Shown in pieces: positions 4,877 through 60,044 of a stretch of DNA of 64,000 nt. This DNA is from Clostridia bacterium (GTDB lineage: Bacteria; Bacillota; Clostridia; Oscillospirales; Acutalibacteraceae): positions 15,367 through 79,366 of the forward strand of contig JAFURT010000009.1 of the NCBI GenBank assembly GCA_017471765.1, written 5' to 3'. Each line of letters begins with the position of its first letter. Positions within the stretch are counted from its first letter, which is position 1. The notes under the pieces were generated by a model. It had not been told where the DNA came from. It searched no databases and was given only the letters and a program-made list of their open reading frames with translations. A program made the translations under genes and the position numbers.

Positions 4877-4878
4877 AG

Positions 4879-4900
4879 ATAGCCGCCTTCGGGCGGCTAT
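4879..4900 (+). terminator. Hairpin after rnfB (atagccgcc-ttcg-ggcggctat) with a weak U-tail
   Basis: 9-bp GC-rich stem with a tetraloop immediately after the rnfB stop. Confidence 0.4.
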
Positions 4901-4996
4901 GCTTGTAAAAACCGGATTTTTCCCGTATACTTTGCGGTTTTCTCCATATAGTAAGGGTGTGTTTTTCACACAAACTGAAGAATGGAGGAAGAACAG

Positions 4997-5974: not shown

Positions 5975-5998
5975 ACGGATAAAAAGGGAGCGTAAACC

Positions 5999-7051: not shown

Positions 7052-7061
7052 GAGTATAGCC

Positions 7062-7631: not shown

Positions 7632-7656
7632 CCGCTTTACATAAAAGGAGAACCGC

Positions 7657-8028: not shown

Positions 8029-8031
8029 CGG

Positions 8032-8520
8032 ATGAAGCGAAAAACCGCCCTGTATGGGCTTTTGGTGGCGCTGGCCTTTATTTTCAGCTATATTGAGGTG
8101 CTGGTGCCCATTCCGGTGGGCATCCCGGGGATTAAACTGGGGCTGGCCAATGGGGTGACGCTGACGGCGCTGTATTTACTGCGCCCGGCGGATGCCCTGG
8201 CGGTATCGGTGCTCCGCATCCTGCTGGCCGGGCTGACCTTCGGCTCGCCTATGACCATGCTGTACAGCCTGTGCGGCGGCCTGCTCAGCTTCGCTGTCAT
8301 GTGGCTGTGCCGCCGCAGTGACCGCTTCAGCGTGGTGGGGGTGAGCATCGCCGGCGGCGTCAGCCATAATATCGGACAGCTCGCCCTGGCGGCGGTGGTG
8401 CTGGCCACCCCGGCGGTGGCGTGGTACGCACCGGTTTTGCTGGTGACCGGTACCGTCACCGGCGCCCTCATCGGCCTGGTGTGCCGCTTGCTGTTGCCAA
8501 GGCTGGAAAAATTGAGATAA
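8032..8520 (+). CDS. Gx transporter family protein (Hpre_diP_synt_I-like membrane protein)
   Basis: 162-aa polytopic protein with an IPGIKLGLAN motif, adjacent to the NusG_II gene. Confidence 0.7.
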   Translation: MKRKTALYGLLVALAFIFSYIEVLVPIPVGIPGIKLGLANGVTLTALYLLRPADALAVSVLRILLAGLTFGSPMTMLYSLCGGLLSFAVMWLCRRSDRFSVVGVSIAGGVSHNIGQLALAAVVLATPAVAWYAPVLLVTGTVTGALIGLVCRLLLPRLEKLR

Positions 8521-8524
8521 TCTC

Positions 8525-8553
8525 TTGAAAAACCTACTTTTCTGTGGTATACT
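8525..8553 (+). promoter_or_regulatory. Putative sigma-A promoter of serS (TTGAAA-17-TATACT)
   Basis: Consensus-like hexamers with a 17-nt spacer, 35 nt upstream of the serS ATG. Confidence 0.45.
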
Positions 8554-8587
8554 GGTAAAATAATCAAACACGGAAGGATGTCGCCGT

Positions 8588-9883: not shown

Positions 9884-9885
9884 TG

Positions 9886-9926
9886 TCAAGAACGCCACGG
9901 CAAGCGCCATGGCGTTCTTGTTTTAG
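9886..9926 (+). terminator. Intrinsic terminator after serS
   Basis: Stem caagaacgcc/ggcgttcttg followed by tttt. Confidence 0.6.
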
Positions 9927-10072
9927 AGAGATAATACTCAACTGCGTCAAAAAAGGTGCATTTCAAGGTGAATGTATTATTTTGGATAAAAGCAACTTAA
10001 TTACGGATAAAAGTTTACGGTTGCTGCCCCGGATGCTCTGTGGTATAATAGCTGTAATAAGGAGGTGATACT

Positions 10073-10996
10073 ATGGAGCATGTGACGGTTGGAAGAATCT
10101 GCAATGAGAGAAAGGTCGCCCTTGTGGAATGTATGAAGGATAGTGATTTGCAGAATATTCACATTAAAGGCACCTGTTTTTTACTGATCTTTCTTTCGTC
10201 CGGTTTTCTGCAGTTTCAAATTGCAGAAAGAGTTGTGGAGGCATCTGCTCCATGCTTCTTTTGCTTTGATGAGTCGGAGGATCCCGTTTGTTTGACAAAT
10301 TGTCAAGCCAGCTACTTTTGTATCTTTTTTCATCCGCAGTTTTTAAACGTCAATATGACGTTTGCGTGTCTTCGCTCACCGTCGTTTGACAACATAGCAT
10401 CGATCCACGACATGATTTTGTTGAAACCGTTTATAGACGGAATTCACAGGTTATCCATTCGCGAGGATTGTGCCAATGCGATGGAGCTGGCGTGCGATTG
10501 TTTATTGAAGGAATTGCAGGAGCAGCAGGACGAGTACTGGTCTTGCCGTAGCCGTTCTTATCTTATAGAAATTATCATTGCCTTGGAGAGACAGTGCGGA
10601 TTGGTCAGGTATGATGGGGCGGTTGCGGGGACTGGATCCTTTCCGGTCGTACAAAGCTCTGCATTGCAAAATGCCGTTCTTTTTATGGAGAGCCATTATA
10701 TGGAGCACTTAACTCTTTCGGACATTGCCAATGCCGCTCATATGAACGTTGCGACATTGACACAAACAGCAAAAAAAGAATTGGGTATGACCGTTATGGC
10801 GTATTTGATGAGTTACCGCTTACGGATGGCGAAAAAGCAGTTGGCTTTTACTTCTGTTCCAATCAAAGAGGTCGCTTCCCGTTGCGGATTTCAGACAGTG
10901 CAGCATTTCAGCCGGGTGTTTAAAAAGCATATGGGTCAACCGCCGGCAGAATTCCGAATGACAGCGGTGCAAAAAAGGAAAGAAGCGTTCGCGTGA
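10073..10996 (+). CDS. AraC family transcriptional regulator
   Basis: GGAGGTG RBS. C-terminal double-HTH AraC signature (LTLSDIANAAHMN..., IKEVASRCGFQTVQHFSRVFKKHMGQPPAEFR). Visibly more AT-rich than its neighbours. Confidence 0.85.
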   Translation: MEHVTVGRICNERKVALVECMKDSDLQNIHIKGTCFLLIFLSSGFLQFQIAERVVEASAPCFFCFDESEDPVCLTNCQASYFCIFFHPQFLNVNMTFACLRSPSFDNIASIHDMILLKPFIDGIHRLSIREDCANAMELACDCLLKELQEQQDEYWSCRSRSYLIEIIIALERQCGLVRYDGAVAGTGSFPVVQSSALQNAVLFMESHYMEHLTLSDIANAAHMNVATLTQTAKKELGMTVMAYLMSYRLRMAKKQLAFTSVPIKEVASRCGFQTVQHFSRVFKKHMGQPPAEFRMTAVQKRKEAFA

Positions 10997-11055
10997 TGAT
11001 TAATCATGTTCCGGCAGAAAACGGGAGAACGAGAGAATGTGAGGAGGCACAGCTT

Positions 11056-11574
11056 ATGATAAAAACAGAATCCTTTGTTTATCGGGATGACGGGAAAATG
11101 CGTTTTATCGGCATTGACGCTTGGCGTACGGGTGATGATTGGGGCGGACTTTGGGAGCGCACTGCGGATTTTATGCCGGAATTGGAGAAACTCCGGAAAA
11201 CATATGCCGCCGGTTTTTCGGAGCCCTGCTCTTTGATGCATGCGGGCGGCAAAGAAGTGGGGGTTGAGGAGCATTTCCTTGCCGGATATTTCTTCAAAGC
11301 AGATACGCCTGTGCCTGAAGGCTATGACTATTTCGACGTGGAAACCACCTGTGTTGGATATGGGGTTTATGTTACGCAGGATATCGGGGAAGATATGGAG
11401 AATGCGTATAGTATGACCAGAGACAGAATTTTGGGAGATGGCTATCTTGTACCGTATCCACAAGGTTATTGGCATGCTGAAGTATATACCAATGGCCGTC
11501 CTCACGAAGGGGAGTACCGCTTTGGCTATGCGTTTCCTGTGTTTTGGGTAAGTGTTTCCGGGAGTGGAAGGTGA
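11056..11574 (+). CDS. GyrI-like / AraC-effector-binding-like small-molecule-binding protein (tentative)
   Basis: GAGGAGG RBS before ATG 11056. About 172 aa, translationally adjacent to the AraC gene. The call rests on general sequence pattern only. Confidence 0.5.
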   Translation: MIKTESFVYRDDGKMRFIGIDAWRTGDDWGGLWERTADFMPELEKLRKTYAAGFSEPCSLMHAGGKEVGVEEHFLAGYFFKADTPVPEGYDYFDVETTCVGYGVYVTQDIGEDMENAYSMTRDRILGDGYLVPYPQGYWHAEVYTNGRPHEGEYRFGYAFPVFWVSVSGSGR

Positions 11575-11588
11575 AATCCTACGATGCG

Positions 11589-11714
11589 GCGCCCCCGTAT
11601 GCGGGTTGCCCTGTTGGAGAACAACCTGGGGTACGCCGACGGCAAGTACAGCCTGCGGATTCCGGCGGCGCTGCAGCCCTACATGGGCGGCAAGACCGTC
11701 ATTCATCAGAAATA
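11589..11714 (+). repeat. Direct repeat copy 2: displaced, frameshifted serS 3'-end fragment
   Basis: Matches 9757-9883 including the TAA. It has a 1-nt deletion near its 5' end and no upstream serS body. Confidence 0.85.
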
Positions 11715-11719
11715 ATTTC

Positions 11720-11756
11720 CCAAAGCCGCTGTTTTTCGTAAACGGCGGCTTTGTCT
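11720..11756 (+). terminator. Hairpin after the serS fragment (caaagccgc...gcggctttg)
   Basis: 9-bp stem followed by gtctt; plausibly the ancestral serS terminator. Confidence 0.45.
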
Positions 11757-11812
11757 TGCGTAAACGGCAAAGGTGTGTTATAATGCCCCTATAAACTCCA
11801 CGGAGGTGCGTT

Positions 11813-12778
11813 ATGACGACGCTGTACTTGGTGATTCCCTGTTATAACGAAGAAGCGGTACTGCCCCACACGGCTCCCGCTTTTTTGGACAAACTGCGGC
11901 AGCTGCAGGCGGAGGGGCGGATTTCCCCTGCCAGCCGGGTGCTGTTTGTGGATGACGGCAGCCGGGACGGCACCTGGCGCCTCATCACCGGGCTGGCCGC
12001 CGACGAGACACTGGTGGAGGGTCTGCGTTTGTCCCGCAACCGGGGGCATCAGAATGCCCTGCTGGCCGGGCTGATGGCGGCCATGCCGCTGGCGGATGCT
12101 ACCGTCAGCCTGGATTGCGACGGCCAGGATGATATCGACGCCGTGGACGCTATGCTTACCGAATACGAGGCCGGCTGTGATGTGGTGTACGGCGTGCGGT
12201 CTGACCGGAGCTCCGACAGTGCCTTCAAGCGGCTCACCGCCCGGGGCTTTTACCGGCTGATGAGCTGGATGGGGGTGGAGAGCGTGTACGACCACGCCGA
12301 CTACCGGCTGATGAGCCGCCGGGCGTTGGAGGGGCTGGCCGCCTTTAAGGAGAAGAACCTGTACCTCCGGGGCATGGTGCCGCTGGTGGGCTACCGGAGC
12401 AGCAGCGTATACTACACCCGTAGCCCCCGGGTGGCCGGGGAGAGCCACTATCCCCTGGGCAAGATGCTGGCGCTGGCCGTTAATGGCATCACCAGCCTGT
12501 CGGTCAAGCCCCTGAAGCTGATTACCGCCCTGGGGCTGGGGGTGTCCTTCATCAGCCTTATCATGATTATCTGGAGCCTTATCCGGCATTTTACCGACGC
12601 TACCGTGTCCGGTTGGAGCAGCCTGATGTGCGTCATTCTGTTTCTGGGCGGCGTCCAGCTGCTGTGCGTGGGGGTGCTGGGGGAGTATATCGGCAAAATC
12701 TATCTTGAGGTGAAGGGCCGCCCCCGCTATCTGGTGGCGGAAAGCACCCTGGAAGCGAAGGAGATGGCGGAAGAATGA
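11813..12778 (+). CDS. Family 2 glycosyltransferase (bactoprenol/undecaprenyl-phosphate glycosyltransferase, GtrB/CsbB-like)
   Basis: N-terminal VIPCYNEE and DDGSRDGT GT-A motifs, with two C-terminal TM helices. Confidence 0.85.
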   Translation: MTTLYLVIPCYNEEAVLPHTAPAFLDKLRQLQAEGRISPASRVLFVDDGSRDGTWRLITGLAADETLVEGLRLSRNRGHQNALLAGLMAAMPLADATVSLDCDGQDDIDAVDAMLTEYEAGCDVVYGVRSDRSSDSAFKRLTARGFYRLMSWMGVESVYDHADYRLMSRRALEGLAAFKEKNLYLRGMVPLVGYRSSSVYYTRSPRVAGESHYPLGKMLALAVNGITSLSVKPLKLITALGLGVSFISLIMIIWSLIRHFTDATVSGWSSLMCVILFLGGVQLLCVGVLGEYIGKIYLEVKGRPRYLVAESTLEAKEMAEE

Positions 12779-13191
12779 AAAGACTGCTGTCTCTGCTTGA
12801 TGGGAAACTGCTGAAATTTCTGGTGGTGGGTGTCATCAATACGTTGGTGGGCACCGCCATCATGTTCGGGCTGTATAATCTGGCCGGATGCAGCTACTGG
12901 TTTTCCTCGGCGGCGAATTACCTGCTGACCAGCATCCTCAGCTATTTTCTGAATAAGTATTTCACCTTCAAAAACGCCGAAAAGGGCTGGCGGCCGATTG
13001 TGCGCTTTGCGGTGAATATCGCCGTCTGCTACCTGCTGGCCTACGGCATCGCCGAGCCGCTGGTGCGCTGGGCGTTGACCGGCGCCTCGCCTACGGTGCA
13101 GGATAATGTGGCGATGCTGGTGGGCATGTGCCTGTTCACCGGGTTCAATTACCTGGGTCAGCGGCTGTTTGCCTTCCGGGAAAAAAATTAA
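12775..13191 (+). CDS. GtrA family membrane protein
   Basis: 138 aa with four TM segments. KFLVVGVINTLVG N-terminus typical of GtrA. ATGA overlap with the GT2 gene. Confidence 0.8.
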   Translation: MKRLLSLLDGKLLKFLVVGVINTLVGTAIMFGLYNLAGCSYWFSSAANYLLTSILSYFLNKYFTFKNAEKGWRPIVRFAVNIAVCYLLAYGIAEPLVRWALTGASPTVQDNVAMLVGMCLFTGFNYLGQRLFAFREKN

Positions 13192-13222
13192 GAAATATTT
13201 AAACATTTTTCGCTTGTATCTT

Positions 13223-13272
13223 AAATCCCTCCTTGGTATCATACATCCGTATGATACCAAGGAGGGATTTTT
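13223..13272 (+). terminator. 21-bp perfect hairpin plus U-run; it also contains the amidase RBS
   Basis: aaatccctccttggtatcata-catccg-tatgataccaaggagggattt followed by tt, then ATG at 13273. Confidence 0.6.
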
Positions 13273-13962
13273 ATGGTGATACGGTGGAGAAGCCGCCGAG
13301 CCCGGTATCGTTGGCTTACACCGGTGTTGGCTATGGTGGTGTTGGGTCTGCTCACCGCTGGGGCGCTCAGCCTGCTTCTGCCGCCGGGGGACGAACCCGA
13401 AAGCGATGCCCCACCCCCGGAGAAACCGGCATTTTTCCTGTCAGCGGCAGAAAAACGGGTAGAAAAACTGAAAAATACCGCCATCCCCGACTGGATATCC
13501 CGGGAATATATCCCCACCCTGGTTACCGCCCGTAGCGGAGACCTGCTGGCGGACTATGCCGGGGTGGTGGTACACTATGTGGGCAACCCCGGCACCACCG
13601 CCGCCGGCAACCGGAATTATTTTGCCACCCCCGGCACAGAAGTGTGCTCCCACTTTATTGTGGGGCTGGAAGGGGAGATTATCCAGTGTATTCCCCTATG
13701 GGAGCGGTCGGTGGCCAGCAACCACCGCAACCGGGACACCGTTTCCATCGAGGTGTGCCACCCCGATGACAGCGGCGAATTTACGCCGGCAACCTATGCC
13801 GCCCTGGTAAAGCTCACCGCCTGGCTGTGTGATGTGGGGGCGCTGGAGGAGCAGCAGGTCATCCGCCACTACGATGTGACCGGCAAGGAATGTCCCCGGT
13901 ATTATGTGGAGAACCGGGAGGCATGGGAGCAATTTCTGGCAGATGTGGCTTCTGCACGATAG
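13273..13962 (+). CDS. N-acetylmuramoyl-L-alanine amidase (Amidase_2/PGRP type), membrane-anchored
   Basis: N-terminal TM anchor. HYVGNPGTTA, SHFIVG and SIEVCH motifs are typical of Amidase_2. Confidence 0.8.
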   Translation: MVIRWRSRRARYRWLTPVLAMVVLGLLTAGALSLLLPPGDEPESDAPPPEKPAFFLSAAEKRVEKLKNTAIPDWISREYIPTLVTARSGDLLADYAGVVVHYVGNPGTTAAGNRNYFATPGTEVCSHFIVGLEGEIIQCIPLWERSVASNHRNRDTVSIEVCHPDDSGEFTPATYAALVKLTAWLCDVGALEEQQVIRHYDVTGKECPRYYVENREAWEQFLADVASAR

Positions 13963-36915: not shown

Positions 36916-37575
36916 TTACAGTGTCCGCAGGAAGCCTGCCAAGCGGCTGGCAATACGGGCGTGGCCGGCATCGCTGGGGTGCAGGCCGTCGGGCATAAAG
37001 CCCTCCCGGATAATCGGAACCTCCGGCTGGATGCCGCCCATGGCGTACAGGTTCAGCACCGGCAGGCCGTAATATTCCGCCACCTCCCGGATGGCCTCCA
37101 CATACCGTTTCAGGCAGGCGGCGGTGCGGATGCCCAGAGCGTTGACAGGTGCATCCTCCTCGCACCGGTGGGTGGGGGTCATCACCACGATTTCTGCAGT
37201 GGGGTATTTCTCCAACAGTGCCCGGTACAGGCAGTGGAGCGCCCCATAGAAGGTGGCAGGCTTCCGGTCGGCCATGGTGCCCAGTGGGGCGTCGCTGAAG
37301 TTAAAGTCGTTGGTGCCGCCGAACACCACCACCGCATCGGCCTTATCCGGCATATCCGGCACACGGGAAGCAAAATACCGGGATAAATGCTCAAACCCCG
37401 GTGCTTCCGGTGCCTGATTGGCGGCAATGCGGGTGCCGCTGATGCCGTCCGCCCATACGTGGGCGCCGGTGTTGCGGCCGAACACCTGCCAGTAGATATT
37501 CTCCGGGCAGGAGGCCTCGCCACCTTGCGTAATGCTGTCACCCAGGAAGAGGACGGTTTTTCCCTTTAGTTCCAT
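36916..37575 (-). CDS. SGNH/GDSL hydrolase, paralog 3 of 3
   Basis: 219 aa with the GDSIT, GGTND and DGLHP catalytic blocks. Confidence 0.8.
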   Translation of the reverse strand: MELKGKTVLFLGDSITQGGEASCPENIYWQVFGRNTGAHVWADGISGTRIAANQAPEAPGFEHLSRYFASRVPDMPDKADAVVVFGGTNDFNFSDAPLGTMADRKPATFYGALHCLYRALLEKYPTAEIVVMTPTHRCEEDAPVNALGIRTAACLKRYVEAIREVAEYYGLPVLNLYAMGGIQPEVPIIREGFMPDGLHPSDAGHARIASRLAGFLRTL

Positions 37576-37595
37576 ATAGGTACCTCTTTACAACT

Positions 37596-38255
37596 TTATA
37601 GTGTCCGCAGGAAGCCCTCCAAGCGGCTGGCAACACGGGCGTGGCCGGCATCGTTCGGGTGTAGGCCGTCGGGCATAAAGTTTTCCCGGATAACCGGAAC
37701 CTCCGGCTGGATGCCGCTGATGGCGTACAGGTTCAGCACCGGCAGGCCGTAATACTCCGCTACCTCCCGGATAGCCTCCACATACCCTTTCAGGTTGGTC
37801 ACATTCCGAACGCCCCGCCCGTTGATGGGGTCGTTTTCGTTGCACCGGTGCAGAGGGGTCATGAGGACAATCTCGGCATGAGGGTATTTTTCCAGCAGCT
37901 TGACGCACAGGCAGTGGCATGCTCCGTAGAAGGTGGTTTCCTCCCGGTCGGCCAGGGTGCCCAGCGGCGCATCGCCGTGGCCATAGTCGTTGGTGCCGCC
38001 GAAGACAACCACCACATCGGCCTCGTCCGGCATGGCCGCCACACGGGAGCCGAAATACCGGGCAAAGCTCTCGAACCCCTCCGGCTCGGGCGTGTACTGA
38101 GGCGCAATGCGGGTGCCGGCGATGCCGTCTGCCCATACCCGGGCGCCGGTGTTGCGGCCGAACACATTCCAGTAGGCATTTTCCAGACAGGAAGCGCCCC
38201 ACCCCTCGGTGATGCTGTCGCCGAGGAACAGGAAGGTCTTGTTTTTCAGTTCCAT
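37596..38255 (-). CDS. SGNH/GDSL hydrolase, paralog 2 of 3
   Basis: 219 aa with the same blocks. Start taken at MELKNK (the upstream ORF extension was rejected). Confidence 0.8.
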   Translation of the reverse strand: MELKNKTFLFLGDSITEGWGASCLENAYWNVFGRNTGARVWADGIAGTRIAPQYTPEPEGFESFARYFGSRVAAMPDEADVVVVFGGTNDYGHGDAPLGTLADREETTFYGACHCLCVKLLEKYPHAEIVLMTPLHRCNENDPINGRGVRNVTNLKGYVEAIREVAEYYGLPVLNLYAISGIQPEVPVIRENFMPDGLHPNDAGHARVASRLEGFLRTL

Positions 38256-38268
38256 GATGTATTCCTCC

Positions 38269-38928
38269 TCACAGTGTGCGCAGGAAGCCCTCCAGCCGTT
38301 TAGCCATGCGGGCGTAGCCGGCATCGTTGGGGTGCAGGCCGTCGGGCATGTACATCTCCCGGATGATCGGCACTTCGGGGTTGAGACCGCTTGTGCGGAA
38401 GAGATCCAGCACAGGCAGACCGTAATACTCCGCTACCTCCCGGATGGCCTGAGCGTAGCCGCCCAGACTGGCTACCATACGGATATGGGTCTCGTGATAG
38501 TTGGTATAAACCTCCTCGTTGCCGCAGTGCAGAGGGGTCATTAGTACGATTTCGGAGGTGGGGTAGCGCTCCAACAGCTTGAGGCACAGGCTGTGTACTG
38601 CGCCGTAGAAGGTGGTGGGGTCCCGATCGGACATCTTGCCCAGCGGGGCGTTGCCGTGGACGAAGTCGTTGACGCCGCCCAGCACTACAATGACGTCTGC
38701 ATCCGGATCCAGCTCGTCCACCCGCAGCTCAAAGTATTTCTCGCCCCAGGTGAATTCGGTTACGCCGGGCTGTTTGGCATAGCGTGTGCCGCCGATGCCG
38801 TTGCCGGAGACGATAGCGCCGGTGTTGCGGCCGAACACCTGCCAGTAGACATTCTCCGGGCAGGAGGCGCCCACGCCCTGGGTGATGCTGTCCCCCAGGA
38901 AGGCAATGCGTTTTCCCTTCAGTTCCAT
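38269..38928 (-). CDS. SGNH/GDSL hydrolase, paralog 1 of 3
   Basis: 219 aa with GDSIT, GGVND and DGLHP. Start taken at MELKGK. Confidence 0.8.
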   Translation of the reverse strand: MELKGKRIAFLGDSITQGVGASCPENVYWQVFGRNTGAIVSGNGIGGTRYAKQPGVTEFTWGEKYFELRVDELDPDADVIVVLGGVNDFVHGNAPLGKMSDRDPTTFYGAVHSLCLKLLERYPTSEIVLMTPLHCGNEEVYTNYHETHIRMVASLGGYAQAIREVAEYYGLPVLDLFRTSGLNPEVPIIREMYMPDGLHPNDAGYARMAKRLEGFLRTL

Positions 38929-38944
38929 TTGTGTCAGCTCCTTT

Positions 38945-39226
38945 TTAGTCGTCGAAGGTGAGGATATCCTTAAATTTTTCCTTAAAGATAGCGTATACCG
39001 TCTGCAGAGTCTCGTTGTCCTCCACAGGCACATAATTTTCCTCATCCTCGCTTACAGGCTGGATGAGCAGAATAATCACTTCGTTGTTGTCCTCGTCCAG
39101 GGGCAGGAGCACCAGGTATTCTTCCCCCTCGTATTCGACGACATCCAAAAACTCGAACTGCACCTCGTTGCCATCCTCGTCGGTGAGGGTGAGGATGCTG
39201 GAGGCTTCTTCTTCCGGGATACTCAT
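38945..39226 (-). CDS. DUF1292 family small acidic protein
   Basis: 93 aa. The pattern DEDGNEVQFEFLDVVEYEGEEYLVLLP is characteristic of DUF1292. Confidence 0.7.
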   Translation of the reverse strand: MSIPEEEASSILTLTDEDGNEVQFEFLDVVEYEGEEYLVLLPLDEDNNEVIILLIQPVSEDEENYVPVEDNETLQTVYAIFKEKFKDILTFDD

Positions 39227-45406: not shown

Positions 45407-45981
45407 GCCAGTCGGCATACCCCCTGAATGCCCTGGGGCTGGCTCATCGGTTTATGGCCGCCCATATTCGCCCCGGCGATACCTGCATCGATGCCACCGC
45501 CGGCCGGGGACGGGATACCCTGTTCCTCTGCCGTCTGGTGGGGGAAACCGGCCGTGTGCTGGCGCTGGATATCCAGCCGGCGGCGGTGGAGGCCACCCGG
45601 GCGCTGTTAGCCGCCGAGGGGGTGGCAGACCGGGCGCAGGTGCTGGCGTGCTGTCACAGCCGTTTGGCAGAGCTGGCCGCCCCGGAGACGGTGGACGGCA
45701 TTATGTTCAATTTCGGCTGGTTGCCTGGCGGAGACCATACCGTATTTTCTCAGCCGGAAACCAGTATCCCGGCGGTGGAGGCGGCGCTGTCCCTGCTCCG
45801 TCCCGGCGGGGTGATGAGCCTGTGCCTGTACTACGGCCGGGAGAACGGCACCGCTGAACGGGACGCCCTGCTCCGCTACCTGTCTACGGTGGATAACCGG
45901 CAGTATACGGTGATCGTGGGGGATTTCCTCAACCGCACCGGGGATTATCCCATCCCGGTGTGCATAGTCAAAGAAAGATAA
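45403..45981 (+). CDS. Class I SAM-dependent methyltransferase, YtqB/MnmM-like
   Basis: The pattern DATAGRGRDTLFLCRLVGETGRVLALDIQ matches YtqB-type methylases. ATGA overlap with the previous ORF. Confidence 0.65.
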   Translation: MSQSAYPLNALGLAHRFMAAHIRPGDTCIDATAGRGRDTLFLCRLVGETGRVLALDIQPAAVEATRALLAAEGVADRAQVLACCHSRLAELAAPETVDGIMFNFGWLPGGDHTVFSQPETSIPAVEAALSLLRPGGVMSLCLYYGRENGTAERDALLRYLSTVDNRQYTVIVGDFLNRTGDYPIPVCIVKER

Positions 45982-45986
45982 AAAGT

Positions 45987-46022
45987 TGCGCTCCGGACGG
46001 CTTGTCCGGAGCGCAGTTTTTA
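45987..46022. terminator. Bidirectional terminator between the methyltransferase and the TIR operon
   Basis: 11-bp stem tgcgctccgga/tccggagcgca followed by gttttta. Confidence 0.7.
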
Positions 46023-46025
46023 TTG

Positions 46026-48707
46026 TTACAGGGATTTCACTGCCCCTTCATACATCGTCACGAAGTCCGAATCCTCCGGGTAAGCCTGGCGGAGCTTCTC
46101 CAGCAGTGGCAACGCCTGATAGCGTATCACATCCTGCCAACCGTTCCCCCACACCAGAGCCAGACACAGATAGCAACGGGCTAGCTTTTTGCCATAGGTA
46201 GGCTGACTGCATAGACGGTAGAGCCTATCATAAGCGGCGATCGCTCGTTCATACTGTTCTTTTGCCTCCGGTCGGTTTCCCTGCTCGCGGCAGGCATCTC
46301 CCAGGCGCTGTGCACAGTCGCCCTGCCGTCGACAGGCTTTTTCCAACCCCTCCCGGTAGCGGGCAGAATCCGGCTTTTTGTCGACGCAGAGCTGCCGCAG
46401 TCGCACGCATTTCTCCAGCCACTTTTGCGCCATCTGGGGGTTCTCCCCCTCCTCATACAGTGTGCCGATGGCATACTGGAGAACCGACAGACCATACACA
46501 TCTGCAATCTTGGAGGCGGTTTTCACCTGCTCCTGCCAATAGGGCAACGCTTTTCCATACCAGTCGAGGGCGATGCTCCGGCTACCCAATTTTCGGTACA
46601 GAGACCCCAGTTCATAACAGGTATCGGCGTATTTTCTTTTGTTTGGCCACGATTTCTGCAGATCGGCACACTCCAAGTACCATCGGATGGCAGTTTGGCT
46701 GTCGCCCCGCTCCCGATACAGCTTGCTCAATCGACTGCAGGCCTTTTCCAGTTGGAAACTGTCACTATGCTTTTGGAGCGGACCTAACTCCCGTCTCAGC
46801 ATCCAATACAAGGTGGCCGCACGCTCATAATGGGTCAGCGCCTCCGGCTGTTGGCCAGCTTCTTCATACCGCTCTGCCGTATAAACGTGGGCATAGACCA
46901 GTACCGGATAAACCGCTGAACCCGTGGGTGCCTGCTGTATGCGCTCCATATCGGCCAGATGTTCCTCCAGCGCCTGACGGTATTCCGGCCTGTCGCTCTC
47001 GCTGACCAATGTCCGGCGCAGCGGCAATCCCCATTTGTACCATTTCAGGGCAAGCGTCGGGTCGCCGGCTGAGTAGCAGACCTCCCCCAGCCCCGCATAA
47101 GCCTTGGCCAGCAGATCCTGCAGGGGGGCGGCCACCTCTTCCTCGGCCAGCCGCTTCTGCAGATATGCCAGCCCTTTTATGTACCGATCAAGCGCCTCCT
47201 CCAGCCGACCGGTGCGGCGGCGGATATCTCCCATACAAAGGCACAGCTGAATCTGGCACATGCACCCTTGCGTGACCCAAGAACCACGGGCAAACCCGAG
47301 CCAGGTGTCGGCCGCATTAAAAAGTTGCTCCGCTTTCTCATGATCCCCGGCCAAATACCGCATGTATCCCAGCTTAAACGACGATAGGCCTATTAAGAAA
47401 AACACGTTCCAGTTATCTTTACCGTTGAGCGTTTTTACAACCACCTCCAGCCGTAGGAACACTGCCTCCGCTTCATCCAAACGGGAGGCCGCCGTCAAAA
47501 GGTCGCCCAGTGAACACAGAGCCTCCACCAATTCGTAGCCCGAGGGGGCGTTTTCTTTGTTCTCTGCCTCGGCATAGTCTGCCTCCCAGGCGTCCGCCAG
47601 CCGCTTTTGCCAGTGGATTGCCCGGTCGTAATCGCGGGCCACGCCCATGCCCTCCCGGTACATGGACGCCAGCTTTTTCATGGCATCCTTCAGTCCTGCC
47701 TCGGCGGCACCGGCGATCAGTTTCTCTGCCCGGGCGTGGTCTACCTCCACGTCGATACCGCTGAGATAGGCCAGACCGATAAAAAAGTTGTGCTGAGGCT
47801 CGTTATCGTTCCCCCGAATGGCTAATTGCCGCAAAGTAGCGGCCAAAGCGGCAGACAGAGCCAGGGGGTCGTGTGCATCTGCACAGGGCGGAATGCCCGC
47901 ATACCGGCTCGCCAGCGCCAGCCGGTCGGTGGGGATCATTTCCGCAGGCAGAATGAGCTTGCCCTGCTCTACCGCCATGGGATACTCAATGGCTTGGATA
48001 TAGTTGGGTTCGTTCACCAGGTTGGGAGTCACTGCCAACACGAACAGGCCGCTTTTTTCTAACGCCTGGCGAATGGCGTCGCTCCAATCCTCTCCGGGAA
48101 TTAAAAACTCGTCGTACCAGATGGCGATATCCCGACAGAATTCATTTGCATGAATGAGCCGCATCAGCTCCTGGGCATGGCGACGATCTTTTTTCCGGTA
48201 ACTGAGGAAAATATAGGCATCAAAAGCGGCACGCACCTGTGCTGCCAGCTCGTCCCCCACCAGCACACTGTCCAGGTAGAGGGTGAGCTTTTCTTCGTAA
48301 GGGATGGCGGTGGGGTCGCTGTCCAGCCGATCCAGGTATTGCAAGTTGCCGAACGTTTTGTCAAACAGGGCCGCTAGCCCCGGCTCCTGTATCAGAGGCA
48401 GCACGGGGAGGTGATGGGCCAGAGCAAAGGGAACAAGGACATCCTTTGCCGGGTTTTCCGTGGTGAGCAGCCGGGTGGTGACCGGCATGACGAACAGCTG
48501 CATGCCGGCCAAGTCTGCTAAAAGATCTTCTGTTACTGTAACGGCGCCGGCTGTATGATAGAAGAGGGCACAGCTCTGTCTGGAAAGGAGCTCCTCAGCC
48601 ACTCCCTCGAAATACAGCGAAAAATCTGCAGGATGGCAACAGAAATACACCCGCGGTTTTCCCTGCGGGCTGGTGTTTCCACGGGTTTTGCAGCCCAAGG
48701 TAGCCAT
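46026..48707 (-). CDS. TIR domain / Sel1 / TPR repeat protein, paralog B (893 aa)
   Basis: The first ~330 aa align without gaps to the upstream gene. TIR_2-type motifs FLSYRKKD, IAIWYDEFLIPGE, LFVLAVTPN and NYIQAIEYP. Sel1-like FFIGLAYLSG...MYREGMGV. Irregular TPR C-terminus. No Walker A. Confidence 0.75.
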   Translation of the reverse strand: MATLGCKTRGNTSPQGKPRVYFCCHPADFSLYFEGVAEELLSRQSCALFYHTAGAVTVTEDLLADLAGMQLFVMPVTTRLLTTENPAKDVLVPFALAHHLPVLPLIQEPGLAALFDKTFGNLQYLDRLDSDPTAIPYEEKLTLYLDSVLVGDELAAQVRAAFDAYIFLSYRKKDRRHAQELMRLIHANEFCRDIAIWYDEFLIPGEDWSDAIRQALEKSGLFVLAVTPNLVNEPNYIQAIEYPMAVEQGKLILPAEMIPTDRLALASRYAGIPPCADAHDPLALSAALAATLRQLAIRGNDNEPQHNFFIGLAYLSGIDVEVDHARAEKLIAGAAEAGLKDAMKKLASMYREGMGVARDYDRAIHWQKRLADAWEADYAEAENKENAPSGYELVEALCSLGDLLTAASRLDEAEAVFLRLEVVVKTLNGKDNWNVFFLIGLSSFKLGYMRYLAGDHEKAEQLFNAADTWLGFARGSWVTQGCMCQIQLCLCMGDIRRRTGRLEEALDRYIKGLAYLQKRLAEEEVAAPLQDLLAKAYAGLGEVCYSAGDPTLALKWYKWGLPLRRTLVSESDRPEYRQALEEHLADMERIQQAPTGSAVYPVLVYAHVYTAERYEEAGQQPEALTHYERAATLYWMLRRELGPLQKHSDSFQLEKACSRLSKLYRERGDSQTAIRWYLECADLQKSWPNKRKYADTCYELGSLYRKLGSRSIALDWYGKALPYWQEQVKTASKIADVYGLSVLQYAIGTLYEEGENPQMAQKWLEKCVRLRQLCVDKKPDSARYREGLEKACRRQGDCAQRLGDACREQGNRPEAKEQYERAIAAYDRLYRLCSQPTYGKKLARCYLCLALVWGNGWQDVIRYQALPLLEKLRQAYPEDSDFVTMYEGAVKSL

Positions 48708-48728
48708 GCACGTCCTCCTTATCGGGTT

Positions 48729-51700
48729 TTACTCCATCTCCGCTAAAGCGTCGTCACACCGCTGCTTGCGCACGGGGTAGTCCGGGTTGCTGGGATAATC
48801 TTGCATAAGGGCGGCCCAGATGGCTTGCGCCTTCTCCAGATACTGCCGTTTTTCCTCGGCGGATTCCACCACCATAGAGAGCCGGCGGTAGATGGCGGCC
48901 AGATCATTTCTGTCGTCCGTGGCCTTGGCATTGGCCACCAAGACCTCGCGCAGGGCGGCGGCCTGCCGGAAATACGCATCGGCTTGCCGAAGATTGTCCT
49001 GAAGCCGGGCCAGTTCCCCTAAGCAATAGTATATTTTGGCCAGATCCCGGCGTGCCGAGGTGGTGTCGGTTTCTTCCAGCAACCGTTGCCGGATGGGGAG
49101 GGATTTTTCGTACCACGCCTGCGCACCGGCATAATCCTTGCGTGCCTTGCAGATGGAGCCAAGGTTGTTGTAGCTGGTGGAAATATCCCGACGGGTTTCG
49201 AGGGTGTCGCTTTCCTCCGCCAACTGCAGGCGGAGGGCCAGCGCCTTTTCATGGTGCTCCCATGCGGCGTCGTAGGCCTTGGTGGCGTCGTAGAGCGCCC
49301 CCAGGTTGTTGTAGCCTGCGGCCAGGTCCCGGCGGTGCTGGTGGGTGTTGGCCCGTTCCACCAGTTGCAGACGGATGGTCAGGCTTTTTTGGTACCATTC
49401 TGCGGCGACATCGTAGTTCTTTCGAGTCTTTTCCAGAATTCCCAGGCTGTTGTAGACAGTACATACATCCCGCATGGCCTCCACGGTGCCGGTTTCCTCC
49501 AGCAAGGCTTCCCGGAGGGCCAGGCATTTTTTGTACCATTGCAGGGCGTCGTCGTATTGCTTTGCATCCTCACAGATGTTGCCCATGTGGCTGTAACAGA
49601 CAGCCGCATCCCGGCGCGCCTCCACGGTGCCGGTTTCTTCCAGCAGGGTTTCCCGGATGGCCAGCGCCTTTTCAAACCACGCCTTTGCCTTGGCGTATTG
49701 GCACTCCGCTTTATACAGCTTGCCAAGGCGGTTGCACGCAACCGTCAGGTTGCGGCGTGCTTCTACCGTGCCGGTTTCGTCGGCTACCTGCTGGCTGATG
49801 GCCAGGTTCATTTCGTACCACTGTCCGGCTTTGTCCAAAGCGCCTTGCTGTTCATAGATATTGCCGATACGGCCAAAGCAGCTGGCCAGGTCTTTACGAG
49901 CCTCCACGGTGCCGGTTTCCTCCGCCAGCCGTTGCCGGATAACCCGGGCGCTTTCGTACCACGTCAAGGCATCTGTGAGGCGGCGGTTTTGTTTGTCGAT
50001 GTCTCCCAGATTGACGTAAGCTACTGTCAGGGTGCGGTACATGGGGATGGAGTCGGTTTCCTCCGCCAATTGCTTGGCAATGGTCATGGAGCGGAAATAC
50101 CACTCCCGTGCGGCAGCCAGATTGGCATAGTCCTTTTCCAAAGCACCCATTTTCATACAGCTGATGCTTAAGCTGCGGCGCTCTCTGGCGGTGCCCAGCT
50201 CCTCTGCCAGCTGTTCATCAATAGCCAGCTCCTTTTGGTACCATTCCCGTGCGGCGGCCAGATTACCGCATTTTCGCTCGATATCTCCCAGCTTTTCGTA
50301 GCAGATAGACAGGCTGTGCCGGGAGCGGTTGTCGTTTTCGCTCCTGGCCAGCTGTTCATCAATGTCCAGCTTCTTTTGGTACCATTCCCGTGCGGCGGTC
50401 AGGTTGCCGCATTCCCGTTCGATGTTCCCCAGGCGCTCATAGGCGATGGCCATATCCCGGCAAGCCAGCACCGTGTTCCGTTCCTCGGCCAATGCCTGCC
50501 GCAGAGGCAGGGATTTCGTCATCCATTCCCGTGCGTCAGCCAGCTGTCCCTTGGCCCGGTGCAGGTCACTCAGGTGGAGATAGCACACCGCCAAAAGCCG
50601 CTGTATCTGCCGGCAGTAGCCGTTTTGGGCGAGATAGGCGGTACATAGGGCCTCCATGCGCTCAAACACCGAGATTGCCTCATCGATGCGGCGCAGGTCG
50701 TGCAGGTCGTTGCCCAAGTCCCACAGCGTTTCGGCCAGAGAAGCCGCTGTTTCCTCGTTGGGGTCAGCCTCGTAGATGGACTGCCGCTTTTCCACCAGCT
50801 TTCTCTGCCAGTCAACCGCTACCCCATAGTTTCGTGCGGTGCCTACGCCGCTCTGATACATGGATACCAGCTTTTCGATGGCTTCCTCCAGCCCGGCATT
50901 GGCGGCGGAGGTAATCAGCTCCAGCGCCCGGTCCAGGTCCACCTCCACGTCCACGCCGCCCAGATAGGCCAGGCCGATGAAGAAATTGTGCTCCGGCGAG
51001 CCGTCGTTCTCCCGGATGGCCAACTGCTGGATAGCGGCCAGCAGGGCCGCCGACAAAGCCCCTTCGTTATGGGCGTCGGTGCTGGGGGGGATGTTCTTGT
51101 ACTTCCTGGCCAGCTTTTTGGGGTCGGTGGGCACCATTTCTGCGGCGATAACAGGCTTTTTCTGCTTTCTCGCCATGGGGTACTCGATTTCCTGGATATA
51201 ATTAGGCTCGTTGATCAGGTTGGGGGTCACCGCCAGCACGAACAGACCGCTTTTTTCCAGCGCCTCCCGGATGGCGTTGTTAAAGTTCTCGCCGGGGGTG
51301 AGGAATTCATCGTACCAGATGGCGATGTCCCGGCAGAAGGGATTTTTGTGGATAAGGCGCATCAGCTCCTGGGCGTATTGCCGGTCTTTCTTACGGTAGC
51401 TGAGGAATACATAGGCATCAAAAGCTGCCCGGATCTTGTCTGCCAGCTCATCTCCGATGAGTACCGCGCCCAGGAACTTTTCCAGCTTTTCTTCATAGGA
51501 GATGGCGGTGCTGTCGGCGGCGTGCTTGTCCAGATATTGCAGGTCACCGCATTTCTTGTTGAACAGCTTGTCCAGCCCGGCCTCCTGCATCAGCGGCAGA
51601 ACCGGGATGTGGTGGGATACGGCAAAGGGGAACAACGTATCCAGTGCCGGATTTTTGGTGGTAAGCAGACGCTCGGTCACCGGCATGAGCACCAACTGCA

Positions 51701-51905
51701 TCTGGGCCAGGTCGGCCAGCAGGTCGGCATCCACTTCTATGCGGCCTTCTGCCGGGAAGAAGACGGCGCAGTTTTGCAGGGCTAGCACCTCGTTGGTGAT
51801 TACGTCAAAATACGTGGAGAAATCTGCCGGGTGACAGCAGAAGAACACCCGGGGTTTGCCTTGGGGGCTGGTGTTCCCTCGGGTCTTGAAAAGCAGGTGA
51901 GCCAT
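48729..51905 (-). CDS. TIR domain / Sel1 / TPR repeat protein, paralog A (1058 aa)
   Basis: TAAGGAGGA RBS. The same N-domain, TIR and Sel1 architecture, then at least 12 regular 47-aa TPR-like units. No Walker A. Confidence 0.75.
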   Translation of the reverse strand: MAHLLFKTRGNTSPQGKPRVFFCCHPADFSTYFDVITNEVLALQNCAVFFPAEGRIEVDADLLADLAQMQLVLMPVTERLLTTKNPALDTLFPFAVSHHIPVLPLMQEAGLDKLFNKKCGDLQYLDKHAADSTAISYEEKLEKFLGAVLIGDELADKIRAAFDAYVFLSYRKKDRQYAQELMRLIHKNPFCRDIAIWYDEFLTPGENFNNAIREALEKSGLFVLAVTPNLINEPNYIQEIEYPMARKQKKPVIAAEMVPTDPKKLARKYKNIPPSTDAHNEGALSAALLAAIQQLAIRENDGSPEHNFFIGLAYLGGVDVEVDLDRALELITSAANAGLEEAIEKLVSMYQSGVGTARNYGVAVDWQRKLVEKRQSIYEADPNEETAASLAETLWDLGNDLHDLRRIDEAISVFERMEALCTAYLAQNGYCRQIQRLLAVCYLHLSDLHRAKGQLADAREWMTKSLPLRQALAEERNTVLACRDMAIAYERLGNIERECGNLTAAREWYQKKLDIDEQLARSENDNRSRHSLSICYEKLGDIERKCGNLAAAREWYQKELAIDEQLAEELGTARERRSLSISCMKMGALEKDYANLAAAREWYFRSMTIAKQLAEETDSIPMYRTLTVAYVNLGDIDKQNRRLTDALTWYESARVIRQRLAEETGTVEARKDLASCFGRIGNIYEQQGALDKAGQWYEMNLAISQQVADETGTVEARRNLTVACNRLGKLYKAECQYAKAKAWFEKALAIRETLLEETGTVEARRDAAVCYSHMGNICEDAKQYDDALQWYKKCLALREALLEETGTVEAMRDVCTVYNSLGILEKTRKNYDVAAEWYQKSLTIRLQLVERANTHQHRRDLAAGYNNLGALYDATKAYDAAWEHHEKALALRLQLAEESDTLETRRDISTSYNNLGSICKARKDYAGAQAWYEKSLPIRQRLLEETDTTSARRDLAKIYYCLGELARLQDNLRQADAYFRQAAALREVLVANAKATDDRNDLAAIYRRLSMVVESAEEKRQYLEKAQAIWAALMQDYPSNPDYPVRKQRCDDALAEME
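48786..50603 (-). repeat. In-frame 141-bp tandem repeat array (47-aa TPR-like units) inside paralog A
   Basis: ccacggtgcc recurs at 49481, 49622, 49763 (as ctaccgtgcc) and 49904. cttttggtacc recurs at 50232 and 50373. W/F positions in the protein step by 47. Confidence 0.8.
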
Positions 51906-51939
51906 GGTGTATCCTCCTTAGCGCGTGTTTATGATACAG

Positions 51940-51967
51940 ATTATAGCATATCCGGGTGAAAAGTCAA
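51940..51967 (-). promoter_or_regulatory. Putative dedicated promoter of the TIR operon (TTGACT-16-TATAAT on the minus strand)
   Basis: Read from the reverse complement of 51940-51967. It lies directly after the kinase terminator, and its -10 hexamer (TATAAT) ends 34 nt before the ATG at 51905. Confidence 0.5.
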
Positions 51968-51968
51968 G

Positions 51969-52008
51969 AAACCCAGCCGACACACCGGCTGGTGTGCAGA
52001 CTGGGTTT
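51969..52008 (-). terminator. Hairpin terminator after the histidine kinase gene
   Basis: aaacccag...cacacc-agcc-ggtgtg...ctgggttt, read on the minus strand. Confidence 0.55.
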
Positions 52009-58244: not shown

Positions 58245-58400
58245 TAAGGCCGTACGCTTTGGGGCATACGGGCAGGCGGGTCCTGTGCGACGGTGCGCCG
58301 TGAACCATGTCAGGCGGGGAACCGAGCAGCATTAAGCGGTCGATGTCCGTGTGCCGCAGTCAACCCACCTGTCCGTATGCCCGAGAGCGACCGGCTTTTT
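58245..58400 (+). ncRNA. ffs: Signal recognition particle RNA (small 4.5S/scRNA type); ends are approximate
   Basis: Domain IV core GUCAGG-CGG-GGAA-CCG-AGCAGC. Long closing helix ggcatacgggcaggcgggt / acccacctgtccgtatgcc. U-run at 58395-58407. The position immediately upstream of dnaX matches other Firmicutes. Confidence 0.8.
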
Positions 58401-58424
58401 ATTTTTTCGCAAGGAGATGAGCGT

Positions 58425-60044
58425 GTGTACCAGGCATTATACCGCAAGTGGCGTCCCCGCACCTTTTCCGACGTGTGCGGCCAGGATACCGTCACCACCG
58501 CCCTGAAAAATGAATTGCAGACCGGCCGCCTGTCCCATGCCTATCTGTTCACCGGTTGCCGGGGCACCGGCAAGACCACCTGCGCCAAGATTCTGGCCAA
58601 GGCGGTCAACTGCCAGAGCCCGGTGGAGGGTGACCCTTGTAACGAATGCGCCCTGTGCCGGGGCATCGATGACGGCTCGGTGCTGGACGTCACCGAGATT
58701 GACGCCGCCTCCAACAACGGCGTGGACAGCATCCGGGAGCTGCGGGACGAGGTGGCCTTTACCCCTGTTTCCGGCAAATACCGGGTGTACATCATCGATG
58801 AGGTGCATATGCTGTCTGCCGGAGCGTTCAACGCCCTGCTCAAGACGCTGGAGGAGCCTCCGGCTCACGTGATTTTCATCCTCGCCACCACCGAGGTGCA
58901 TAAACTGCCGGCCACCATCCTCTCCCGGTGCCAGCGGTTTGATTTCAACCGCATCCGCCCGGAGGCCATCGCCGCCCGGATTCAGTATGTGGCGGAGCAA
59001 GAGGGGCTGACGGTGACCGAGGAGGCCGCCATGCTGTTGGCTCGTCTGGCAGATGGCGCCCTGCGTGACGGCCTGTCCCTGCTGGACCAGTGTGCATCGG
59101 TGGCCCGGCATATCGACGCTGATACCGTGGCCGCCGTTACCGGCATGGCCAGCCAGGAGGTGCTGGCGGCGCTGACCGCCTGCGTGGCGGCCGGGGATGC
59201 CGCCGGGGCGCTGGAGCAGATCGACCGTCTGCACCGGTCAGCCAAGGATATGGAACGGCTGTGCGCTGAGTGGGTGACGTATATGCGGAACCTGATGGTG
59301 CTCCACAGCGTGAAGGAGCCGGGCGAGCTGGTGATTGCCGCCCCCCAGGAGCTGGAGCAGATGCGCAAGGCCGCCGCCGGGCTGGGCTTGCCTACGATCT
59401 TACACATCATGGAGGTACTGCAAAGCACCCTGGAACGGCTAAAAGGCGGGGTTTCCCGCCGGGTAGAGATGGAGATGGCGGTGTTGCGGCTGTGCGACCC
59501 CCGGCTGGATACCGGTACGGCGGCCCTCCTGCACCGCATAGAAACGCTGGAAAATCAGGTGCGTAGCGGCGTCCCGGTGGCACAGACAGCGCCGCCGGCT
59601 GTGCCGGCAACCCCGGTTTCGGCCACTGCCCCGGCCACAGAGGAGCCGCCTCTGCCGGAACCCCCGGATACTGCTAAACCGGAAGCGCCTACCGCCCCGG
59701 CGGCAAGTGCCCCCGGTGACGAACAGCCCTTCCCCCAGTGGGCGGCTGTGCTGGAGGTGCTGATGACCTCCTGCCCGCCTCTGTTCGGCGTGCTGGCCGA
59801 TTCCTCGGCTATCCTCAAGGACGGCAAGCTACTGATTTGCACTAATAATCCGCTGTTCTCGGAACTCATTAAGGACAGCGGTAACCAGAAGCTGCTCACC
59901 GAAGCGGTGCAGAAAGGCACCGGCAGTAGCTATCGTCTGGGCCTGCGCCGCACCCACGTGGTGGCGAAGCAGGAGGCAGACCCCCTCACCCAGCTGTTGG
60001 CGGCCGGCCGTGCCGCCGGTGTGCCGGTGACCGAAAAAGAGTAA
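58425..60044 (+). CDS. dnaX: DNA polymerase III subunits gamma/tau
   Basis: GTG start 8 nt after an AAGGAG RBS. YRKWRPRTF, GCRGTGKTT, a CNECALC zinc module, and NALLKTLEEPP. Confidence 0.9.
   Translation: MYQALYRKWRPRTFSDVCGQDTVTTALKNELQTGRLSHAYLFTGCRGTGKTTCAKILAKAVNCQSPVEGDPCNECALCRGIDDGSVLDVTEIDAASNNGVDSIRELRDEVAFTPVSGKYRVYIIDEVHMLSAGAFNALLKTLEEPPAHVIFILATTEVHKLPATILSRCQRFDFNRIRPEAIAARIQYVAEQEGLTVTEEAAMLLARLADGALRDGLSLLDQCASVARHIDADTVAAVTGMASQEVLAALTACVAAGDAAGALEQIDRLHRSAKDMERLCAEWVTYMRNLMVLHSVKEPGELVIAAPQELEQMRKAAAGLGLPTILHIMEVLQSTLERLKGGVSRRVEMEMAVLRLCDPRLDTGTAALLHRIETLENQVRSGVPVAQTAPPAVPATPVSATAPATEEPPLPEPPDTAKPEAPTAPAASAPGDEQPFPQWAAVLEVLMTSCPPLFGVLADSSAILKDGKLLICTNNPLFSELIKDSGNQKLLTEAVQKGTGSSYRLGLRRTHVVAKQEADPLTQLLAAGRAAGVPVTEKE

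Follow-up and report, generated by a model that had tools for sequence, protein, structure and literature searches.

Genes A and B are adjacent on the minus strand of a 64,000-nt stretch of DNA, here called the window, from a Clostridia bacterium of the Acutalibacteraceae (GenBank assembly GCA_017471765.1, contig JAFURT010000009.1, positions 15,367 to 79,366; all coordinates below are those of the window). They encode large proteins that join a TIR (Toll/interleukin-1 receptor) domain to an array of tetratricopeptide repeats (TPRs) with no recognizable NTPase between them. A preliminary description of this DNA treated the two genes as one operon and as a candidate immune module. The interpretation that we favor, and to which we give an even chance, is that each protein would be a single-gene, NTPase-less sensor-effector in which the TPR array gates a TIR NADase, with a phage protein as the most plausible trigger. 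Function as a ligand-triggered NADase sensor is likely on the basis of architecture and precedent, with no contextual support, and an antiphage or immune role is suggested by analogy of the architecture.

The module comprising residues 1 to 290 of these proteins matched 1,633 representative clusters (50% identity level) at an E value of 1e-30 or lower, and in nearly all of these clusters it was N-terminal in a protein of 650 to 1,400 amino acids. TIR_2 was found in 52 of 52 sampled representatives, TPR_12 in 49, and Sel1 in 45. The 351 matches in species-representative genomes were mostly in metagenome-assembled genomes (MAGs) of gut or rumen Oscillospiraceae, Acutalibacteraceae, Lachnospiraceae, and Ruminococcus; Muribaculaceae and spirochete bins contributed a few. 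NCBI labels the members just 'toll/interleukin-1 receptor domain-containing protein'. Proteins from a Muribaculaceae bin (L011), a Treponema bin (L056), and a Spirochaetaceae bin (L068, three tandem copies on a 213-kb contig) were 55 to 65% identical to Clostridia proteins, and such sequence similarity in MAGs of other phyla could reflect either cross-phylum transfer or binning error. Architectural variants included P0121 (1903 amino acids), in which the module occurs twice, as if two tandem genes had fused; P0206, where it spans residues 186 to 474; and P0102 (381 amino acids), in which the TIR_2 part is paired with an HD domain (PF01966).

A single family copy was present in 72 of 79 loci. 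Tandem arrays of two or three copies, with paralogues of different ages, were found in about six, and at least four MAGs had family copies on separate contigs. None of the 79 loci showed conserved synteny of neighboring genes; the commonest neighbor cluster, an ABC ATPase, occurred in 7 of 80. No conserved partner or effector gene emerged, with no recurrent SIR2/SLOG, Macro, or transmembrane effector beside the family genes. Because 72 of the 79 loci are single copy and no neighbor is conserved, we consider the functional unit to be one gene rather than a two-gene system. The earlier proposal of an operon, receptor pair, or heteromer as the unit does not agree with this distribution, nor with a synonymous divergence (dS) of at least 1 between A and B. 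Judged from their sequences, A and B are an old tandem duplication under purifying selection.

Both proteins scored above the Pfam gathering cutoff of 28 for TIR_2 (A, residues 166 to 259, 43.7 bits; B, residues 166 to 255, 38.7 bits), which substantiates the TIR_2-type domain that had been read in each of them. An AlphaFold2 (AF2) model of residues 1 to 380, made with an input alignment of 50 sequences, had a predicted local distance difference test score (pLDDT) of 90.6 and a predicted template modeling score of 0.85. In this model the TIR strands lie at residues 164 to 169, 194 to 198, 221 to 226, and 252 to 256 in a flavodoxin-like beta-alpha-beta fold. Foldseek matches to the model included TLR1/2, SPARTA TIR-APAZ, SARM1, and TIR-STING, mixed with Sel1 and generic tandem alpha/beta structures, and did not indicate a specific characterized relative. 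The solved TIRs nearest by sequence were AbTir, BtTir, and PdTir, which have the BB-loop motif 'WYDEF.L.PG(D/E)' in common with the family. Glu241, previously noted as conserved in A and B, was invariant in family alignments of 50, 47, and 52 sequences and lies in a predicted alpha-C helix (residues 236 to 247). An hhalign comparison (probability 74%) placed E241 on what we take to be E642 of SARM1 and Y236 on W638; this match is a lead only. By conservation and position, E241 is likely the catalytic glutamate, and the TIR domain is a probable NAD-cleaving enzyme.

The N-terminal domain of about 160 residues, which the preliminary description left unassigned, is a diverged second TIR-like domain, referred to as the pseudo-TIR. 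Its profile matched that of the family's own TIR domain by hhalign with a probability of 97.4% and an E value of 1.4e-11 over 74 columns, and because of this profile-profile match we conclude that it is a diverged internal duplicate. The AF2 topology of residues 19 to 119 is beta-alpha-beta-alpha-beta-alpha-beta, followed by a second such domain at residues 164 to 268. The beta-A motif of the pseudo-TIR, RVYFCCHPxD, is TIR-like, its counterpart in the canonical TIR being FLSYRKKD, and an 'E-F-x-F-A' motif mirrors 'E241-Y-P-M-A'. At column 91, the position equivalent to the catalytic glutamate, 40 of 47 homologues have E or D, and both A and B have Leu91. Most family members may have two catalytic TIR-like domains; in A and B, only the second can be catalytic. 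The beta-A motif of the pseudo-TIR is preceded by a nearly invariant leader, 'KTRGxxSPQGKP' (T8, P14, G16, K17), which is not a Walker A motif; leader and beta-A motif fall within residues 1 to 27 of A (51825..51905) and the same residues of B. The 'YFCCHPxD' of that motif (C23, C24, H25) stands where canonical TIRs show 'FxSYxxxD'.

The two Sel1-like repeats that had been proposed to follow the TIR domain were weak by Pfam, and solved Sel1 proteins matched residues 300 to 375 with an E value of 4e-14. Strong TPR_12 and TPR_10 matches were found in both proteins. The array of A consists of 12 regular units of about 47 amino acids (residues 436 to 975 by a repeat hidden Markov model [HMM]) and resembles the bacterial kinesin-light-chain-like structure 5o01 (E value of 1e-12); that of B is irregular. 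A full-length AF2 model of B (pLDDT of 83.3) contained only helical repeats over residues 281 to 892, with no beta-strand past residue ~276, and Foldseek matched it just to generic TPR solenoids and to no specific characterized relative. Walker A and B motifs, transmembrane segments, and signal peptides are absent from both proteins. Pfam detected no NTPase family in A or B at an E value below 0.1 and none that was recurrent among the 52 family representatives. Thus, the motif scan, the model of B, and the Pfam survey bear out the earlier observation that a P-loop is absent, and reveal no cryptic NTPase. The 824-residue 'Tetratricopeptide repeat protein' of PDB entries 9m0n and 9umd was considered as a solved relative and rejected: it was absent from the top 60 full-length-profile matches. 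At its N terminus it resembles the family profile weakly, in a TIR-like match (E value of 0.25); it is not a close relative.

Overall, A and B were 40% identical by BLASTP, and they aligned without gaps at about 68% identity over residues 1 to ~385, close to the two-thirds identity first estimated for their shared N-terminal region. Identity by region was 0.64 in the N-domain, 0.74 in the TIR, 0.56 in Sel1, and 0.24 in the tail. The tails had been described as completely divergent; they still align as TPR at about 24% identity. The family-wide pattern was similar: median identity was highest in the TIR (0.66) and lowest in the TPR tail (0.28). The ratio of nonsynonymous to synonymous divergence (omega) was 2 to 4 times higher in the TPR tail than elsewhere, yet below 1, so that omega and region-wise identity both agree with the proposal of a conserved N-terminal half and a fast-evolving C-terminal half. 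With omega values of 0.12 to 0.47, both copies in the pair are under purifying selection in all regions. Positive selection on the TPR half was rejected as a claim, with omega by the Nei-Gojobori method (NG86) below 1 when averaged by region and dS mostly saturated. Recent amplification of TPR units at the DNA level was likewise rejected; there was just one repeat of 141 bp in 2.1 copies at 74% identity. One locus, L037, has three tandem copies (5305-7923, 8078-10684, and 10851-13286). Copies 2 and 3 of this array had a dS of 0.23 in the TIR versus 0.65 to 0.96 in the flanking regions, which suggests that gene conversion has homogenized the TIR between them.

In the mechanism that we propose, the AbTir/SARM1-like TIR domain would be an NAD+ glycohydrolase with E241 as its catalytic residue. 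It would remain idle as long as the fast-evolving TPR array is unoccupied; the activating ligand would be a protein or peptide, most plausibly one encoded by a phage. Binding might cluster or rearrange the molecules so that their TIR domains assemble an active site, comparable to SpbK, SARM1, TIR-SAVED, and E. coli TIR-II. The output would be direct depletion of NAD+, leading to growth arrest or abortive infection. This outcome is likelier than a Thoeris-type signal to a dedicated partner because no effector gene is conserved beside the family genes. The rigidly packed pseudo-TIR probably serves the catalytic TIR as a partner or regulator within the same chain, and A and B would represent two specificities rather than an obligate heteromer. 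A more elaborate version of this proposal, which we think doubtful, is that the family, with its more than 1,600 diverged clusters and often several copies per genome, is a germline repertoire of STAND-less pattern-recognition receptors of gut Clostridia. The pseudo-TIR would complete a composite active site, and a TPR ligand would free an intramolecular lock and so switch on NAD+ cleavage without the higher-order, NTPase-driven oligomerization on which NLR/Avs proteins depend.

The evidence for an immune role is mixed. Counted in its favor are the combination of a TIR with a variable repeat sensor, copy-number variation, the absence of synteny, and the occasional adjacency to genes for a TIR-NB-ARC-TPR protein or a CARF nuclease. 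In a Lawsonibacter sp. MAG (L001), a TIR_2-NB-ARC-TPR gene (7614-10106, +) lies about 2 kb downstream of the family match (4765-5901). Neighbors of this type occurred in 3 loci, and the L001 NB-ARC protein had generic TIR/TPR similarity to A by BLASTP. A gene for a Card1-like CARF-PD-(D/E)xK nuclease is directly upstream of the family gene in three Oscillospiraceae/Acutalibacteraceae MAGs with a common arrangement (L015:8563-9804, L027:8562-9803, and L028:8561-9802, all on the minus strand). This nuclease could be a lineage-specific effector responding to a TIR signal, or the adjacency could be a coincidence. PADLOC gave generic TIR/TPR similarity only, as anticipated in the preliminary description, which expected no match to a named system; its ThsB profile matches (E values of 4e-5 and 2e-4 over about 85 residues) are generic TIR similarity.

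Several results weigh against the sensor-effector interpretation. Defense genes detected with PADLOC within two positions of the family genes were compared with those four or more positions off in the same loci, and no enrichment was found (at most 11 of 148 near genes versus approximately 12 to 14 of 148 far genes). The expected association with defense islands was therefore not borne out, near-gene matches being no commoner than far-gene ones. Carriage by phages or plasmids was also rejected: tblastn searches of phage and plasmid collections returned no hits, and the family was found on just 2 of 2.9 million IMG/VR contigs. No marks of a mobile element were seen around the pair in the window, where the flanks are housekeeping genes. 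Region-averaged dN/dS of the TPR half was 0.16 to 0.47 (NG86), and because these values are below 1, the divergence is accounted for equally well by a repeat scaffold under relaxed constraint and by a diversifying sensor. In HMMER alignments the catalytic glutamate of AbTir fell 4 residues, and that of BtTir 2 residues, upstream of E241, an offset that depends on gap placement.

Some of the same findings would be expected if the family had no immune role, an explanation that we consider possible, though the less probable one. The proteins would then be TPR/Sel1 scaffolds or NAD-linked regulators that respond to an endogenous signal, such as stress, sporulation or germination, or peptide quorum sensing of the RRNPP type, with the TIR acting as a regulated NAD+/nucleotide hydrolase or as a mere oligomerization module. 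The pair has an rRNA-methylase/rsmI/holB block on one side and a two-component/ABC module on the other, with gpr and rpsT close by; this setting is consistent with such a role, as are the lack of defense enrichment over the far-gene control, the exclusively chromosomal location of the family, purifying selection in all regions, and a strong, constitutive-looking promoter. However, the lack of synteny across 79 loci would be unusual for a housekeeping regulator, and the variable copy number, tandem arrays, and more than 1,600 diverged clusters, together with an invariant glutamate and an NADase-type BB loop, also argue against it. To our knowledge, the bacterial TIR enzymes characterized so far all act in conflict, either antiphage or in host-directed virulence, which further weighs against a non-immune function. 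It is improbable that A and B form an obligate heteromer, in which one protein senses and the other executes, or in which their TIR domains form a mixed assembly. Their 21-nt linkage, common promoter and terminator, purifying selection on both, and the loss of the pseudo-TIR glutamate from A and B alike would fit this arrangement, but most loci have a single gene, the arrays are sporadic with paralogues of different ages, and each protein has a complete domain set that includes the invariant E241.

Two further alternatives carry less weight still. Host-directed effectors like the Tcp proteins, acting on host TLR/MyD88 signaling or host NAD+, are very improbable. The nearest TIRs do come from a group related to Tcp proteins (AbTir/BtTir/PdTir), the family inhabits the gut and rumen, and Sel1 repeats are common in host-interaction proteins. 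Against this, A and B lack a signal peptide or transmembrane segment, no secretion-system genes were found nearby, and the family is present in hundreds of commensal or rumen Clostridia, often in several copies per genome, as very large TPR proteins of a cytoplasmic type. The chance that A and B are cryptic STAND/NLR-like (Avs-type) proteins with an NTPase diverged past recognition is close to negligible, even though an N-terminal effector followed by C-terminal TPRs resembles the TIR-NB-ARC-TPR layout and one such protein adjoins the family member in L001. That neighbor shares only generic similarity with the family, and a hidden NTPase was rejected from the motif scan, the Pfam searches, and the full-length model of B, in which everything past the TIR module is helical hairpins and thus cannot accommodate an alpha/beta domain of about 250 amino acids.

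Comparison with known systems indicates that some elements of the sensor-effector interpretation have precedents. E. coli TIR-II is a single TIR+TPR protein whose protection against phages requires the TIR active site; an ATPase is present in only about 30% of its homologues, and among the new TIR systems it is reported to have the widest distribution (PMC11350192, Nat Commun 2024). Its mode of action is cell death or growth arrest, and it has also been reported in Caudoviricetes (PMC11350192). Compared by description only, the A/B family resembles TIR-II in having TIR and TPR in one polypeptide with an ATPase being optional, but TIR-II is described with one TIR, without a tandem pseudo-TIR or a Sel1 linker, and from another host phylum. 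TIR-II is reported in Caudoviricetes, whereas the A/B family was absent from the phage collection, and this lack of phage and plasmid hits argues against a close relationship. SpbK of the Bacillus subtilis integrative and conjugative element (ICE) ICEBs1 is a stand-alone TIR NADase in which binding of the phage portal protein YonE clusters the TIRs and triggers NAD+ depletion (PMC12847820). Like A and B, it fuses a sensor to a TIR without a STAND NTPase; unlike them, it has a small helical sensor at the N terminus and the TIR at the C terminus, is located on an ICE, and lacks TPRs, Sel1, and a pseudo-TIR. In light of TIR-II, validated as antiphage (PMC11350192), and of STAND-less TIR activation in SpbK (PMC12847820), 'undescribed', as applied to the module in the preliminary description, was too broad. 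Coupling of TIR to TPR without an NTPase is not new; the new elements are the scale of the family in gut Clostridia and the tandem pseudo-TIR/TIR module joined to a Sel1 linker.

Other relatives are more distant in layout. TIR-STAND-TPR proteins (Avs/NLR-like) share the N-terminal TIR effector and the C-terminal TPR sensor with diversified repeats, but their STAND NTPase switch (NB-ARC/NACHT, Walker A and B) is missing from the A/B family. AbTir, BtTir, and PdTir (PDB 7uwg, 8g83, 7uxr, 3h16), the closest solved TIRs, have an identical 'WYDEF.L.(P)G(D/E)' motif and an alpha-C glutamate, but they are short, have a coiled-coil N terminus, lack TPR and Sel1 repeats, and differ in alpha-C length by 2 to 4 residues. 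In BcTir/Tpr, which corresponds to Thoeris types VII/VIII, a small TIR protein and a nucleosidase-TPR effector that senses cyclic ADP-ribose are encoded by two genes (10.1101/2023.05.26.542521; 10.64898/2025.12.03.692087). TIR and TPR likewise cooperate there, in NAD-linked antiphage defense; in A and B they are fused, with no nucleosidase domain and no conserved partner gene. More generally, the A/B family differs from Thoeris in that no dedicated effector gene is conserved beside it. Actinobacterial TIR-TPR proteins of more than 700 amino acids were noted as 'group 6' TIRs (PMC7075850). A large Thoeris survey left out stand-alone TIR proteins on purpose, which helps to explain why the A/B family is unstudied.

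If the family is immune, it would be among the largest uncharacterized TIR effector families of the human and ruminant gut microbiota, and STAND-less coupling of TPR to TIR, so far represented by E. coli TIR-II and in principle SpbK, would be widespread in Firmicutes. The variable TPR arrays could then show which phage proteins gut Clostridia sense. Should the idea of a receptor repertoire with composite active sites prove true, TIR immunity would include an activation logic that is both distinct and minimal. A non-immune family would offer a rare example of a bacterial TIR enzyme in ordinary physiology. The tandem pseudo-TIR/TIR is a tractable model of TIR active-site gating.

The layout of the pair was much as originally described (Table 1). 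Re-reading of the open reading frames (ORFs) and ribosome-binding sites (RBSs) gave two co-directional genes separated by 21 nt, the second with its own RBS, and the AAGGAGG-to-ATG spacing is 7 to 8 nt for A and B alike. The promoter said to follow the kinase terminator matches 11 of 12 consensus positions, has a TG extension (TTGACT-16-TG-TATAAT), and is the top-scoring promoter site of the region; hairpin terminators were found at both ends. The exact protein A was present on 8 metagenome contigs, each time with the same gene arrangement. Metagenomic homologues of the rRNA methylase that flanks the pair lay on short contigs (58 to 72% identity) or were only 48 to 54% identical and shared no synteny.

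Table 1. Features of the A-B gene pair, with coordinates in the 64,000-nt window
Feature	Coordinates	Strand	Description or basis
Gene A	48729..51905	-	1058 aa: pseudo-TIR, TIR_2, two Sel1-like repeats, regular TPR-like array
A pseudo-TIR, residues 1-160	51426..51905	-	Diverged TIR-like domain; hhalign and AF2 topology
A Leu91 codon	51633..51635	-	
A TIR_2, residues 161-290	51036..51425	-	AbTir-type 'WYDEF..PGE' BB loop; Pfam TIR_2
A E241 codon	51183..51185	-	
A Sel1-like repeats, residues 291-380	50766..51035	-	Two helical repeats, linker; PDB Sel1 match, AF2 helices 304-379
A TPR-like solenoid, residues 381-1058	48732..50765	-	Kinesin-light-chain-like; Pfam TPR_12, TPR_10; repeat HMM
Gene B	46026..48707	-	893 aa: pseudo-TIR, TIR_2, Sel1, irregular TPR solenoid
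B pseudo-TIR	48228..48707	-	
B Leu91 codon	48435..48437	-	
B TIR_2	47838..48227	-	
B Sel1 repeats	47568..47837	-	
B irregular TPR solenoid	46029..47567	-	
RBS of gene A, AAGGAGG	51913..51919	-	Sequence read
RBS of gene B, AAGGAGG	48714..48720	-	Within the 21-nt gap
Promoter of the A-B unit, TTGACT-16-(TG)TATAAT	51940..51967	-	Sigma-70-type, extended -10; 11/12 consensus positions
Terminator-like hairpin	51973..51992	-	End of upstream histidine-kinase gene; insulates the A-B pair
Intrinsic terminator 3' of gene B	45987..46015	-	12-bp stem, 9 GC pairs, T-run

The pair is flanked in the window by DUF1846, holB, PSP1, rsmI, and rRNA methylase genes on one side and by a histidine kinase-response regulator pair, an FtsX/ABC transporter, gpr, and rpsT on the other. 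ThsA/SIR2, CD-NTase, Argonaute, and reverse transcriptase genes, reported earlier as absent from the vicinity, were not found among these housekeeping, two-component, and ABC transporter genes. Directly downstream of the B terminator is a second promoter-like site, TTGACT-16-TG-GATAAT (45944..45971, minus strand; 10 of 12 positions), which points into the rRNA-methylase gene at its 3' end, in the antisense direction; it could be an antisense promoter or have arisen by chance. Elsewhere in the window, a bacterial small signal recognition particle RNA (Rfam RF00169, 60.9 bits) at 58274..58373 on the plus strand overlaps the predicted start of a dnaX-like ORF (58293..60044). Three tandem GDSL-lipase paralogues of about 219 amino acids each lie at approximately 36916..39045 on the minus strand, according to the annotation of an identical contig (L083).

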